A stretch of 42,083 nucleotides of DNA from Minisyncoccota bacterium (GTDB taxonomy: Bacteria > Patescibacteriota > Minisyncoccia > Phycocordibacterales > DSPV01). Of this stretch, positions 35,324 to 42,083 are shown one piece after another. The notes below the pieces were generated by a model. That model worked only from the letters and a program-made list of their open reading frames with translations, was not told the DNA's origin and did not search any database. The stretch's first letter is position 1. Each line of letters begins with the position of its first letter. A program made the position numbers and the translations under genes. The stretch lies in assembly GCA_036517235.1 (NCBI GenBank), contig DATDXL010000001.1:1-42083 (forward strand). The letters run 5' to 3'.

Positions 35324-37345
35324 ATGGACCAACTGTTTTTGAACATCAGCAATCCTTTCATGCTCTTTGCACTCATCGCCGCCGTAGTGGCTATTGTGTA
35401 CGGCTTGCTGCTAGCACGTACCATATTCAAGAGAAGCCCCGGTAATGCCCGCATGCAAGAGATATCTGATGCGATACGCCAGGGTGCGAAAGCATACCTC
35501 AACCGACAATATAAGACCATCGGAGCCATCGCTCTCGTCCTTTTCATCATCTTATGGGCAGCACTGGATCTGCGCGTGGCGCTTGGATTTATTATCGGAG
35601 CATGCTTCAGTGCGCTTGCGGGCTACATTGGCATGAACGTCTCGGTGCGCACGAATGTGCGTACCGCGGAAGCCGCACGCCAGGGACTTGCCCCAGCGCT
35701 CTTGCTCGCATTTCTGGGCGGAAGCGTGACAGGACTCCTTGTCGTGGGATTGGCACTTCTTGGTGTCGCCGGATTTTATGCGATTACGGGAGATGTAAAA
35801 TCTCTTATCGGACTTGGCTTTGGGGCAAGCCTCATTTCAGTATTCGCTCGTCTTGGAGGTGGCATTTTCACCAAAGCAGCTGACGTCGGCGCTGACCTCG
35901 TTGGGAAAGTGGAAGCGGGGATCCCCGAGGATGACCCCAGGAACCCTGCCGTCATCGCTGACAACGTCGGTGACAACGTCGGTGACTGCGCGGGTATGGC
36001 AGCCGATCTTTTTGAAACCTACGTGGTAACCCTGGTTGCAACCGCGCTTCTCGGTCACCTTATCTTCCCAAACTTTGCCGGAGCAATCATCTATCCGATC
36101 GCCCTTGGCGGAACCGCCATTATCGCTTCTATCATTGGAATGTGGTTCGTCCGTCTCGGCAAGAGTCAAAACATCATGGGAGCGCTCTACAAGGGTCTTA
36201 TCGCTGCCGGTATCCTCTCTGCAATTTCCTTTTATCCTCTCACTAAAGTCCTCATGGAGGGAAATGGCCTCTACACAACGACCAACCTCTTCATCGCCGC
36301 GCTCGTGGGACTTCTCGTAACCGCAGCGTTCGTCATCATTACTGAATATTACACCTCAACAAAATATAAACCGGTACAGTCTATAGCCAAGGCATCACTT
36401 TCTGGGCATGGCACAAACATCATCCAGGGGCTTGCGGTTTCCATGAAAGCAACTGCTTTGCCTTTGATTACCATCGTTGCGGGAATTCTTATCACCTACC
36501 ACGTGGCAGGTCTCTATGGTATCGCGATCGCCGCGATGTCGATGCTCTCGATGGCGGGCATCATCGTCGCTATTGACGCGTATGGACCTATCACCGACAA
36601 CGCGGGGGGTATCGCTGAAATGGCAGAACTCCCTAAAGAAGTGCGCGATGTCACCGACCCCCTTGACGCGGTAGGAAATACAACCAAGGCGGTAACTAAG
36701 GGTTACGCTATCGGTTCTGCGGCATTGGCAGCACTTGTGCTTTTTGCCGCGTACACGCAAGAATTTGCTTCTCTCGGAAAAGAACTGGTCTTTGCCCTTG
36801 GCGACCCCAAAGTCATCGTGGGACTTTTCGTAGGAGGTCTTCTCCCCTACTACTTCGCAGCTCTCGCGATGGAAGCGGTGGGAAAAACCGCCGGAGAAGT
36901 CGTCAATGAGGTGCGAAGACAGTTCAGAGAGATAAAAGGCATCATGGAGGGCAAGGCGAAACCGGATTACGCGCGAGCAGTTGATATAGTCACCGGTGCC
37001 GCAATCAAACAAATGGTGCTTCCTGCTCTTATACCAGTGCTCGCGCCGATCATTGTCGGTTTTACGCTTGGACCTGTGGCGCTGGGCGGATTGCTCGTCG
37101 GCTCCATCATCACAGGGCTATTCGTCGCCATTTCTATGACATCTGGAGGCGGTGCATGGGATAATGCGAAGAAGTACATCGAGGCAGGAAATTTTGGAGG
37201 AAAGGGTTCTGACGCGCACAAAGCGGCCATCACCGGCGACACGGTAGGAGACCCGTACAAAGATACGGCTGGGCCAGCGATAAACCCCATGATTAAGATA
37301 TTAAACATCGTAGCGTTACTATTGGTAGGTTTTCTTGCTAAATAA
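35324..37345 (+). CDS. hppA: Membrane-bound proton/sodium-translocating pyrophosphatase
   Basis: 673 aa from the ATG at 35324, with [37 protein letters not shown] and [14 protein letters not shown] motifs. Confidence 0.95.
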
Positions 37346-37473
37346 GGTATCTTTGTAAGGGTCTGGGAAGGGGTCGGGAAACGGGAGTTTCCCGTACAGG
37401 AGAGCAACGAGTCTGCGAGCGTTGAGAACCGTGGGTTCTCAAGGAGGAACCCGCAGCGGGTGACGACGATTCG
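37346..37473 (+). other. Structured 128-nt spacer between hppA and its duplicated 3' end
   Basis: It opens with GTATCTTTGTA (37347-37357), the reverse complement of TACAAAGATAC at 37256 and 37474. It contains the hairpins CGGGAAAC-ggga-GTTTCCCG (37375-37394) and TTGAGAACC-gtg-GGTTCTCAA (37422-37442). Confidence 0.6.
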
Positions 37474-37563
37474 TACAAAGATACTGCTGGGCCAGCTATC
37501 AATCCGATGATAAAGATATTGAATATTGTAGCCCTACTGCTTGTTGGATTCCTAGCGAAGTAG
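37474..37563 (+). pseudogene. Displaced duplicate of the last 29 codons plus stop of hppA
   Basis: It translates to [29 protein letters not shown], identical to the hppA C-terminus. 19 of 29 sense codons and the stop codon differ at the nucleotide level. There is no start codon, and an in-frame TGA lies at 37423. Confidence 0.8.
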
Positions 37564-39809: not shown

Positions 39810-40811
39810 TTAGGACTTTGGGCTTGGTGCTTCCAGCTTCTTTCTTACTATAAGCTCCAGCCTTTTGGCTTTGGAATGAGATAGCATTCCAAGATACGAC
39901 GGAAGGTTCTTTCCATTCACACACGAAAGCATGCGGTGCTTTGTTCTTGTCCTTAAAACTGTCCGATGCGGAAGAACGACGTATCCGAGAAAATCAACGC
40001 CTTGCCTTAATTTTCTAATCTCTATTTTCACCGGATGAAGCGAGAGAAATAATCGTTCGCGCAGAAATACTACGATATATCGTAGTATTTCTGTAAGCGA
40101 CGGGTCATCGGAAAAAATAAACACAAAATCGTCGCAGTAGCGGATATAGTATTTCTGTCTGAGTCTGTGCTTTATGAACTGGTCGAGCTCGTTAAGGTAA
40201 ATGTTGGAAAACAACTGGCTCGTGACATTGCCGAGCGGTAAACCCTTTCCACTGCTCGTCTCAAAAGACCTGACGATATGCACAACGAGCCCGAATAGCC
40301 TCTCGTCGGCTACCTTTTCGCGGATGAGTGAAAGAAGAATATGGTGGTCTATTGAATCAAAGAACTTCTTGATGTCACATTTGAGCACATAACCCTGTCG
40401 TCGAAAATTTGAAGTAACCTTTTGAGCAAAAATCTGGAGACGTTCTACGCCTGCATGGGTACCCTTTAGGTTTCGGGAAGAATAGGAGTCGTGGATAAAC
40501 GACGGGTCAAAAACGCCGTAGAGCCTTCGATACACTGCTTGAAAGAGCACTCGGTCTCTGACACTCGCTTTATGGATACGACGCAACTTAGGATCACGAA
40601 CGAAAAAAGATACGTATGGCTCGGGCTTCCATGTCCCTTGTGCTAGACTTTCATGGAGGGCGAAGAGCTCACCCTCAAGAGTAAGTTCAAATGCCGCAAT
40701 GTCCGATTTCTTTCGTTTTCCTCTGGCAAACTCGCGCCAAGCCGCAAAAAGATTTGGAAGTGAGATTACATCACAAAAACTAATACTATGATGACCCCCC
40801 CCCAACGACAC
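39810..40811 (-). CDS. DGR-type reverse transcriptase
   Basis: 333 aa with RT motifs KCDIKKFFDSIDH, LPLGNVTSQLFSNIYL (the DGR-typical [IL]GxxxSQ) and YIRYCDDFVFIF (YxDD). GTG start at 40811. The start is uncertain. Confidence 0.9.
   Translation of the reverse strand: MSLGGGHHSISFCDVISLPNLFAAWREFARGKRKKSDIAAFELTLEGELFALHESLAQGTWKPEPYVSFFVRDPKLRRIHKASVRDRVLFQAVYRRLYGVFDPSFIHDSYSSRNLKGTHAGVERLQIFAQKVTSNFRRQGYVLKCDIKKFFDSIDHHILLSLIREKVADERLFGLVVHIVRSFETSSGKGLPLGNVTSQLFSNIYLNELDQFIKHRLRQKYYIRYCDDFVFIFSDDPSLTEILRYIVVFLRERLFLSLHPVKIEIRKLRQGVDFLGYVVLPHRTVLRTRTKHRMLSCVNGKNLPSYLGMLSHSKAKRLELIVRKKLEAPSPKS
40062..40093. repeat. 32-bp perfect palindrome CAGAAATACTACGATA/TATCGTAGTATTTCTG inside the RT coding sequence
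   Basis: Verified self-complementary. It encodes TEILRYIVVFLRE and shares the 14-bp core TACGATATATCGTA with the palindromes at 24822 and 25305. Confidence 0.8.
40795..40803 (-). repeat. Homopolymer G9 (C9 on the plus strand) at codons 3-6 of the RT
   Basis: The plus strand reads ATGACCCCCCCCCAACG. On the coding strand it is GTG TCG TTG GGG GGG GGT. Confidence 0.8.
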
Positions 40812-40836
40812 CCTACCGATTATACATGCGATAAGA

Positions 40837-41151
40837 ATGCTGCATTTGGAGATTTACCGCATCGGTAAGAAACTGCCGAAGGGCGATAAGCTAGGCATTC
40901 ACGCGGAAGTTGAAAGGAAATGTTTCAAACTTCTCTCATGTTCCATAGAAGCCGCATATAGACCAAGAAAGGAAAAAACGGAAACGCTCGTGGAACTTCG
41001 CTTAACAACAGAAGTACTGAAGAATATCTGGCGCACAGAATGCGAACTTGGGATTGTGGATGAAAAGACCTATCTGCGCATCGCAGAGAAAATGGTAGAG
41101 ATATCAAAGATGACAAATGGTTGGATAACCTACACGCAAAAAGGAGCGTGA
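40837..41151 (+). CDS. avd: Avd-like four-helix-bundle accessory protein (23S rRNA IVS protein family)
   Basis: 104 aa. LEIYRIGKKLPKGDKLGIHAEVERKCFKLLSCSIEAA...LVELRLTTEVLKNIW...ISKMTNGWI follows the four-helix-bundle/Avd pattern. It lies on the strand opposite to TR and RT. Confidence 0.7.
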   Translation: MLHLEIYRIGKKLPKGDKLGIHAEVERKCFKLLSCSIEAAYRPRKEKTETLVELRLTTEVLKNIWRTECELGIVDEKTYLRIAEKMVEISKMTNGWITYTQKGA

Positions 41152-41170
41152 AAGCTCCTTTGATGCGAGA

Positions 41171-41276
41171 AACTTCGGGACGAAACCGCACGTTATCATT
41201 GGCATTGTCCAGATTCCAGTCGTTGACCTTCACCTTGCTATCGTTGAAGTTCACGTTCGGCACGTTACCGTCTGCG
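41171..41276 (-). repeat. DGR template repeat (TR)
   Basis: 41177-41276 aligns without gaps to 41513-41612. At all 20 mismatches this copy has A on the minus strand. Its translation NVPNVNFNDSKVKVNDWNLDNANDNVRFRP has 9 AAY codons. Confidence 0.9.
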
Positions 41277-41440
41277 ATTCGTTTTACCTCATTCCGTCCG
41301 TATCTCCGAGAATATTTCACAAAATTCTCTGTGTCCCACTCGGGGTACTCCGATCATGGTATGGAACAAGGCAAGCAGTTTCTTTGTGTGTGACCAATCG
41401 CCATACGCTTTAGCGGACCGACTGCACAGTCAACGTTAGT

Positions 41441-41472
41441 ATAGAAAATGCACCCTGATTGCTCAAGGTGCA
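41441..41472 (-). terminator. Hairpin plus T run about 20 nt after the target-gene stop
   Basis: On the minus strand, TGCACC-12 nt-GGTGCA is followed by TTTTCTAT. It could be a terminator or a VR-proximal structural element. Confidence 0.35.
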
Positions 41473-41491
41473 CGTGTGAAGAGTACAAGGG

Positions 41492-42083
41492 TTAAGAAGG
41501 AAGGTAAACTGTGGGACGAAACCGCACGAAATCACAGGCATGGCCCAGAGACCAGCCGTCGACCTTCACCCCGCCATCGCCGAAGTCCACGCGCGGCACG
41601 CCACCGTCTGCGGTTTCCGATTCGGCGCACATTGTCACCACCGCTCGATCCAGGAGCTTCTTGGAAGCGTTCTCCAAAAACACATCGGCGCCGAGCACCA
41701 GGCGAACCGGCAAGGTAGTCGTCCGGAGCCCAAACGGGGCAAGGGAGCGCACCGTGCGAGTGTTTACGTTGACGCCACCAAGTTTGCCGAACGGCGCTTC
41801 GTCATCATCCGCAACCCAGCAGCCGAAAGTACCGGTGACGTTGTGCTTTGGCACCGCTTCGTCCAAACTGGTGCTTCCGGAAAATTTCCAATGGTTGCAA
41901 GTGCCAGCCATCAGTTTTTCGTTGGCGCGGTAGAGAAGCTCCGAAGAGTTTCCTTTTTCGTGCATAACAATCAGGCGGGCTTTGAAGTGAGTTGGTGGCT
42001 TCGGAATCGGCAGTGCGGCAAAATCGGTATTGGTGCCATAGACCGTCTTCCACCGTCCTTCCCAGTGCTTCGCCAGCTCTGAT
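41492..42083 (-). CDS. DGR target protein, 5'-truncated by the window edge, with a C-terminal variable region
   Basis: The frame stays open from the window end to the TAA at 41492-41494, with no stop upstream of the listed Met. The last ~35 aa (ADGGVPRVDFGDGGVKVDGWSLGHACDFVRFRP) are encoded by the VR. Confidence 0.8.
   Translation of the reverse strand, partial: SELAKHWEGRWKTVYGTNTDFAALPIPKPPTHFKARLIVMHEKGNSSELLYRANEKLMAGTCNHWKFSGSTSLDEAVPKHNVTGTFGCWVADDDEAPFGKLGGVNVNTRTVRSLAPFGLRTTTLPVRLVLGADVFLENASKKLLDRAVVTMCAESETADGGVPRVDFGDGGVKVDGWSLGHACDFVRFRPTVYLPS
41507..41612 (-). repeat. DGR variable repeat (VR)
   Basis: It matches the TR at 80 of 100 positions (41513-41612). Substitutions occur only opposite TR adenines. 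It ends 15-20 nt before the target stop codon. Confidence 0.9.

Follow-up and report, generated by a model that had tools for sequence, protein, structure and literature searches.

Among the systems closest to the locus described here, the prototype is the diversity-generating retroelement (DGR) of Bordetella phage BPP-1, arranged mtd-avd-TR-brt, where TR is the template repeat (PMC6182149; 10.1101/2023.10.23.563531). The phage element depends on a 140-nt spacer 3′ of TR (PMC6182149; 10.1101/2023.10.23.563531), and cryo-electron microscopy showed that the first 33 nt of the spacer are an Avd-binding stem-loop (Handa et al., 2024; bioRxiv 10.1101/2023.10.23.563531). Such stem-loops just 3′ of TR were predicted by the same authors in 207 of 278 DGRs, including those of the candidate phyla radiation (CPR). 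In the main text of Wu et al. (2018; Nucleic Acids Research 46:11, PMC5758913), 90 % of the CPR set belongs to Architecture B3, written TR-(avd)-RT, with parentheses denoting the reverse strand and RT the reverse transcriptase. We analyzed a DGR located at the 3′ end of a stretch of 42,083 nt, hereafter the window, which is the whole of contig DATDXL010000001.1 (C1) from the 1.01-Mb, 92 % complete genome of a Minisyncoccota bacterium (GCA_036517235.1). The locus is an ordinary B3-type DGR of a CPR (Patescibacteria) bacterium, and comparison with its relatives makes it probable that it works as three transcription units, with the starts of avd and of the RT gene overlapping across a hypermutable G/C run. 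The components of the element are the following.

39810–40811, minus strand: DGR RT open reading frame (ORF) as assembled, with a GTG start at 40811 (RVT_1, E=2e-21).
40837–41151, plus strand: avd ORF as assembled, 104 aa, from an internal ATG (bAvd match).
41170–41279, minus strand: TR, identified as a repeat pair with the variable repeat.
41506–41615, minus strand: variable repeat (VR), a 110-nt direct repeat of TR.
41492–42083, minus strand: 3′ part of the target gene, with the VR at its C-terminus; the open frame runs off the contig end.

The element shows an adenine-biased TR/VR pair, a motif of the DGR clade in the RT and a VR at the 3′ end of the target gene. TR and VR differ at 23 positions of their 110-nt alignment, and at 21 of these the TR has an adenine (minus strand); the VR constitutes the last ca. 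35 codons of the target gene, whose ORF had no match in Pfam or NCBIfam. The sequence CGTGCGGTTTCGTCCC is the same in TR and VR, which diverge after it, as expected of a GC-rich 3′ boundary (initiation of mutagenic homing, IMH/IMH*), and the 3′ end of TR, GAAGTTTCTC (41176–41167), is kept across the family. The motif LPLGNVTSQ of the RT fits the DGR-type consensus [I/L]GxxxSQ; NCBIfam holds no DGR-specific RT model. The RT gene also contains a 32-bp perfect palindrome (40062–40093), which the genome search recovered as a match to its own complementary strand.

The target gene with its VR, the TR and the RT gene are all on the minus strand, and avd is on the plus strand between TR and RT, occupying 315 of the 358 bp that separate them. 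The original prediction, made from this stretch alone, had described this inverted position of avd, which was borne out by the ORF map, by the repeats and by the relatives, and had considered it atypical, which holds only in relation to the Bordetella phage prototype. As relatives we used the 80 closest RT loci from a collection of contigs with one genome per species (45–64 % identity), plus the paralogues from the same genome; the 80 loci are all from CPR-type metagenome-assembled genomes, nearly all of them labeled as Patescibacteria. An Avd homologue lies directly upstream of the RT gene, on the opposite strand, in 77 of the 78 loci and paralogues with upstream DNA (jackhmmer E=1e-18 to 1e-41). 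The sole exception, L053 (CAVXIE010000003.1), is without avd and has TR directly upstream of RT, with a G10 run still there. The order VR, TR, (avd), RT is invariant in the ca. 58 loci with a detectable adenine-biased TR/VR pair, always with TR on the RT strand. Likewise, the three paralogous DGRs in contigs C76, C88 and C11 of the same genome have an identical inverted-avd arrangement, the RT genes of C76 and C88 being 72 % and 64 % identical in nucleotide sequence to the window copy. This comparison found the plus-strand ORF conserved and no co-oriented avd elsewhere. The TR-(avd)-RT order, the reverse-strand avd as sole accessory gene and the CPR/DPANN host are those of B3; order, strands, the single adjacent target, the type of host and the sole accessory gene coincide with the CPR B3 DGRs as presented in the main text of Wu et al. 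(PMC5758913), with no difference in layout. The inverted-avd layout has been in the literature since 2017/18, and it is the rule in CPR bacteria. Three features of the window are not described in that main text: a hairpin with a U-tract following TR, a structured leader 5′ of TR and a G/C run at the junction of avd and RT. The features of this junction are as follows.

40795–40803, both strands: C9/G9 homopolymer common to the 5′ regions of avd (plus) and RT (minus).
40788–40836, plus strand: probable ancestral 5′ end of avd, consisting of ATG ATG (40788–40793), C9 and then codons for N-D-T-L-P-I-I-H-A-I-R, with a homologous in-frame ATG in C76, L015 and L018.
40813–40827, minus strand: ATG TAT AAT CGG TAG, which corresponds to an RT-sense start in the relatives (ATG GAT AAT CGG CAR) and is the antisense of Avd L-P-I-I-H.

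A run of 7–12 G residues (mode 9–10) on the RT strand immediately precedes the conserved RT N-terminus in 64 of 82 loci, whereas only ten G or C runs of at least 7 nt occur in the other 478 kb of these loci. The run is situated 33–55 nt (mostly 36–42) from position 2 of the Avd model vs. 35–80 nt from the RT anchor. Four of the 13 loci with an Avd match that lack the G-run have instead dinucleotide repeats at the junction, namely (GA)5 in paralogue C11 (L011), (GT)n in L058 and L069, and (CT)12 in L079; this replacement points to selection for a slippery repeat, not for G residues as such. A role of the run as a Shine-Dalgarno-like element for RT was rejected as the main explanation, because the run keeps a tighter distance to avd than to RT, is often inside open frames and is replaced by dinucleotide repeats.

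The length of the run was compared in 32 contigs retrieved by scanning metagenomes with the RT 5′-end motif and grouped when they had 0–4 mismatches over flanks of 1.4–2 kb. Five groups of near-identical contigs differ by one G, as listed below, whereas groups with runs of 5, 7 or 8 were unvarying.

L092 / L098 / L103: G10 / G9 / G10.
C76 (this genome) / L108: G8 / G9.
C88 (this genome) / L111 and L123: G9 / G10.
L018 / L117: G9 / G10.
L106 / L109: G8 / G9.

The junction resembles a contingency locus in having a repeat tract in the 5′ end of a coding region and length polymorphism between near-identical contigs. As in the poly-G/C contingency loci of Campylobacter, Neisseria, Haemophilus and Bordetella (PMC1891110, PMC8355987), the tract is a G/C run of 8–12 in the 5′ coding region whose length varies between otherwise identical sequences, in-frame and out-of-frame states are both found, and other types of repeat occur at the same site. 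Here, in contrast, a single tract is shared by two genes overlapping in antisense, so that the putative switching would re-phase both, and these genes control a hypermutation device instead of a surface structure. Our literature search found no paper linking DGRs with homopolymers or phase variation. The near-identical metagenome contigs L095 and L120 have an interrupted G-run, GGGGGGGAGGCGC, which may be a variant with a fixed tract.

The first in-frame starts as assembled are divergent and 25 bp apart, as originally predicted: GTG 40811 for RT, with TTG 40805 as an alternative in the same frame, and ATG 40837 for avd. The RT frame reads G9 as Gly-Gly-Gly. The plus strand of the window at the junction is ATG ATG A, C9, AAC GAC ACC CTA CCG ATT ATA CAT GCG ATA AGA ATG. 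Here the avd frame extends upstream to 40795, where it is limited by an in-frame TGA (40792–40794) just before the run, and the upstream ATGs (40788 and 40791) are one C out of frame with C9 and would be in frame with C8. The homologous upstream ATG is in frame in C76, L015 and L018 (M-I-T-P-P-S-D-T-L-P-I-I-H...) and one C off in the window, C88 and L012. In nearly all loci the avd frame continues upstream without a stop codon across the run (Pro-Pro-Pro), which is followed by a conserved x-P-[IVL]-[IVL]-H-K; the codon before the conserved Pro is often not a start codon. An avd-sense ATG just upstream of the C-run, and open to it, occurs in 63 loci and an RT-sense ATG in 49. With the upstream extension, the window Avd covers positions 8–105 of the bAvd model, an alignment that otherwise begins at position 13.

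In many relatives an RT-sense ATG is situated upstream of the G-run (ATG-AAY-AAY-MGG), as the exact antisense of the Avd [IV]-[IV]-H codons. The His codon of Avd is CAT in 27 relatives and CAC in 2, vs. a background of ca. 70:30, and this excess argues that the ATG on the RT strand is selected. Since the ATG of each gene is the His codon of the other, both ATGs must be in frame or out of frame together; C76, L015 and L018 have the two in frame, and other loci have the two out of frame. In C88, the RT frame opens only past the G-run. The three frame states are about equally frequent among 60 loci (18/18/24). These alignments indicate that the coding starts of avd and RT overlap head to head across the G/C run in the relatives. 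GTG 40811 and ATG 40837 are thus the only starts available in the assembly, but they look secondary and are probably not the ancestral ones. Two other proposals for the start of avd were discarded: TTGCCG, past the C-run, as a −35 box, because the implied −10 box falls inside conserved Avd codons; and, as a general rule, a start at the Leu codon of LPIIH, because this codon is often ATH, GTC or CTN.

The original prediction also took the TATAAT found on the minus strand at 40824–40819, 7 nt before the RT GTG, as pointing to a leaderless RT mRNA. In its strictly local form, this explanation supposes that TATAAT is a working −10 box, that a leaderless RT mRNA begins at GTG 40811 and that avd is translated from ATG 40837, 25 bp away, all independently of the ancestral starts; we consider it rather unlikely. 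The hexamer is certainly present, matches the consensus perfectly and lies at that short distance from a GTG that is in frame with G9. Furthermore, the two substitutions specific to the window, GAT to TAT, which makes TATAAT, and CAR to TAG, which closes the old frame, are both synonymous for Avd, and ATG 40837, unique to the window and replaced by ATA in the relatives, looks like an acquired secondary start. However, on the plus strand the hexamer reads ATT ATA, two Ile codons of Avd, and on the minus strand it is equivalent to codons 2–3 of the old RT leader; the relatives have GATAAT, AACAAT or AATAAT at this position. The hexamer is inherited coding sequence and not a conserved promoter position. 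Our promoter scan found no −35 partner for it. The homologue of the relatives' RT-sense ATG is at 40827–40825 in the window, out of frame with RT and followed by TAG at 40815–40813. An Avd starting at 40837 would be without ca. 12 N-terminal positions of the family model, and an RT starting at the GTG would still read through G9. Leaderless GTG starts are, besides, inefficient in model bacteria. The TATAAT is therefore doubtful as a −10 box, and so is the leaderless RT mRNA.

The remaining question was whether TR and RT are transcribed separately or as one RNA antisense to avd, both of which the original prediction had contemplated. The elements that bear on it are the following.

41473–41448, minus strand: terminator-like hairpin of the target gene.
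41466–41438, minus strand: promoter-like TTGAGC-17-TATACT from a consensus scan, overlapping the target terminator hairpin; candidate start of the TR transcript.
41308–41329, minus strand: stem-loop of the TR 5′ leader, GAGAAT-loop-ATTCTC, followed by a CGGAGA/CGGTGA motif (RNAalifold).
41135–41169, minus strand: post-TR hairpin, with inner stem AAAGGAGC/GCUCCUUU at 41161–41140, then U residues, and an outer CGC/GCG helix.

A stem of at least six pairs plus a T-run follows TR in 66 % of 58 distinct loci, compared to 14 % of shuffled sequences and 8 % of random places in the same loci. The hairpin is strand-specific, being found in only 22 % on the avd-sense strand vs. 66 % on the TR strand, and in 22 close relatives the stem changes in sequence with the pairing kept, i.e., it covaries. 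In the window, the stem appears as AAAGGAGC/GCTCCTTT at 41161–41140, followed by UUUUUG; the inner stem has 8 bp, four of them G-C, and its loop contains the stop codon of avd (41149–41151). The structure has the form of an intrinsic terminator, with a G+C-containing stem-loop and a U-tract on the TR strand, although a general terminator scan did not list it. An outer helix, formed by CGC at the end of TR and GCG past the U-tract, encloses the inner hairpin and is compensated as CAC/GTG in several relatives, where the partner changes at a third codon position of avd (ACG to ACA) without altering the amino acid. This outer helix speaks against an RNA that invariably ends at the first U residues. 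By analogy with the phage, the post-TR hairpin sits at the position of the Avd-binding stem-loop, and its role may be to bind Avd, to terminate the transcript or both.

The region 5′ of TR also shows signs of a conserved RNA. The leader stem-loop lies ca. 25–50 nt upstream of TR and, in RNAalifold predictions with 20 relatives, contains nine pairs, eight of them with compensatory changes and few broken; the conserved motifs reach ca. 105 nt upstream. In the window, the leader (41308–41345 and 41370–41382, minus strand) can form two consecutive hairpins and has the motifs GAAACTGC, AAC-N-CAG and CGGTGA/CGGAGA; of the two hairpins, the TR-proximal one covaries strongly in the relatives. Hexamers resembling a −10 box cluster 160–260 nt upstream of TR in the relatives. 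No Rfam family was found in 40600–41700. Pairing of the TR 5′ flank with the region 3′ of TR, in the manner of a phage-like "cPRT stop" duplex, did not differ between native and permuted loci when evaluated with RNAduplex on long segments (p=0.37). With shorter segments of the leader and the TR 3′ end, the best value (p=0.02) did not survive 12 tests; both comparisons are weak, since the motifs are conserved across loci.

In a codon alignment of 71 sequences, the synonymous-site entropy of avd does not depart from background at any point of the gene body, whereas a functional spacer RNA running antisense to avd should constrain these sites somewhere. Separate TR and RT transcripts are hence favored by the post-TR hairpin with its U-tract, the covarying leader and the unconstrained synonymous sites of avd, and the sequence data favor a self-contained TR RNA of ca. 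300 nt, ending at or just past the hairpin.

It is improbable, in our view, that a single minus-strand TR-RT transcript passes instead through the hairpin and runs antisense over avd, with the interval acting as the spacer of the DGR RNA and dampening avd by pairing or by transcriptional collision. Such a transcript is compatible with the co-orientation of TR and RT wherever TR was found, although the main text of Wu et al. (PMC5758913) reports that TR and RT can be on different strands, so that co-transcription is not required. It would also agree with the phage DGR RNA, whose 140 nt 3′ of TR include the priming adenosine and an RT-binding stem-loop, with an inner stem that is short in the window and with the covarying outer CGC/GCG helix, which shows RNA going past the U-tract. 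Nevertheless, the hairpin with U-tract is strongly enriched and strand-specific, synonymous variability is not reduced anywhere in the body of avd, and the conserved structured RNA is 5′ of TR instead. In addition, hexamers resembling a −10 box precede the RT-sense ATG by a fixed distance in many of the relatives.

The assignment of the plus-strand ORF to avd does not depend solely on family scores. The window Avd scored 40.0 bits with PF22296 (bAvd; cut-off 40, E=6e-10), over model positions 13–105 of 107, and 41.6 bits with NF033474 (DivGenRetAVD; E=1e-10), below the cut-off of 80; the assignment is supported by context and conservation. The dN/dS ratios of avd vs. its relatives are 0.13–0.24, with saturated dS, and on these alignments avd is under purifying selection. 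The genome has four Avd matches, each adjoining an RT gene in the same inverted position, and a jackhmmer survey of the RT loci revealed no second avd in any relative. Using the 104-aa Avd as query for other encoding contigs on record gave no match. The idea that the plus-strand ORF is a chance open frame, with a co-oriented avd elsewhere, could appeal to a bAvd score just at the cut-off, to an NCBIfam score below it and to a contig that ends inside the target gene and leaves the upstream sequence out of view, but it is already refuted by the conservation data: the homologous ORF in the same place and strand in 77 of 78 relatives, the low dN/dS and the inverted position of all the Avd matches of the genome, next to an RT gene.

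Our preferred explanation is thus that of three transcription units, and we consider it likely. The first, the target gene, would end in its own terminator-like hairpin. The second would be the TR as a stand-alone structured RNA of ca. 300 nt, starting near 41466–41438 and containing the folded conserved 5′ leader, the template and then the long hairpin with U-tract over the avd stop codon; this hairpin would probably both end the transcript and correspond to the Avd-binding stem-loop of the Bordetella phage, and the functional TR RNA would have no need to cross avd in antisense and continue into RT. The third would comprise avd and RT, transcribed divergently from promoters situated inside each other's 5′ ends, where a change of one base in the length of the run would re-phase both genes. 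In the C9/G9 state of the window, the full-length Avd would be off by one C, leaving only an N-terminally shortened Avd from ATG 40837, and the frame of the ancestral RT ATG is closed by TAG, so that RT could start only at GTG 40811 or TTG 40805. The layout and its conservation, the enrichment and covariation of the hairpin, the conservation and length polymorphism of the run and the frame states are direct observations; the transcript ends, the use of promoters, the start codons used and the switching of expression by changes in run length are what we infer from them.

Several observations weigh against this explanation. The uniform distribution of frame states fits rapid switching, but equally fits upstream ATGs that are not real starts, and homopolymer lengths in short-read assemblies are error-prone. 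With respect to the TR RNA, the outer CGC/GCG helix beyond the U-tract implies a functional RNA that runs at least a few bases past the release point of the terminator, and if CPR elements need 140 nt as the phage does, the RNA must enter avd in antisense. Finally, the bAvd score is just at the cut-off.

A broader proposition, which we put forward tentatively and hold to be somewhat less likely than its negation, is that the CPR B3 clade has a distinct wiring. The TR RNA would be a terminator-bounded gene organized 5′ of TR, with the post-TR hairpin as its sole 3′ element, and avd and RT would overlap head to head across a selected hypermutable repeat, be it poly-G, (GA)n, (GT)n or (CT)n, so that one slippage would switch both proteins, and targeted hypermutation with them, on or off. 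The window would then represent an off or partly escaped state, with C9, a TAG-closed RT start and the secondary starts 40837 and 40811. As a speculation, the terminal post-TR hairpin could offer its 3′-OH as a cis-primer.

The locus and the BPP-1 DGR (PMC6182149, 10.1101/2023.10.23.563531) both have adenine-specific TR-to-VR differences, Avd together with RT, and a VR at the 3′ end of the target gene. Both also have a stem-loop directly 3′ of TR, which in the phage is the Avd-binding stem-loop. They differ in that the avd of the window is inverted and placed where the phage has its 140-nt spacer, and in that the stem-loop of the window is followed by a U-tract, with no conserved RNA signal antisense to avd and with a conserved folded RNA 5′ of TR. 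The post-TR hairpin also resembles the intrinsic terminators shared by convergent genes, with an A-run on one side of its G+C-containing stem and a U-run on the other, a position between avd and the TR transcript, and the U-tract on the TR strand. Here, however, the stem extends over the avd stop codon and a covarying helix surrounds it, and the hairpin may be an element of the ribonucleoprotein too, or instead.

The Bordetella phage model has a long spacer RNA between TR and RT, an interval that in CPR bacteria encodes a protein in the opposite direction. The model therefore has to be modified for this most numerous lineage of cellular DGRs, in which the comparisons point to a template RNA that is short and terminated separately. 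More surprising than the layout is the slippery repeat conserved where avd and RT overlap; if the run does gate both genes, targeted hypermutation would become a phase-variable trait of these organisms.

Outside the DGR, the window contains a 91-nt direct repeat (37254–37344 and 37472–37562, 78 % identity), in which the 3′ end of a membrane pyrophosphatase gene is duplicated.

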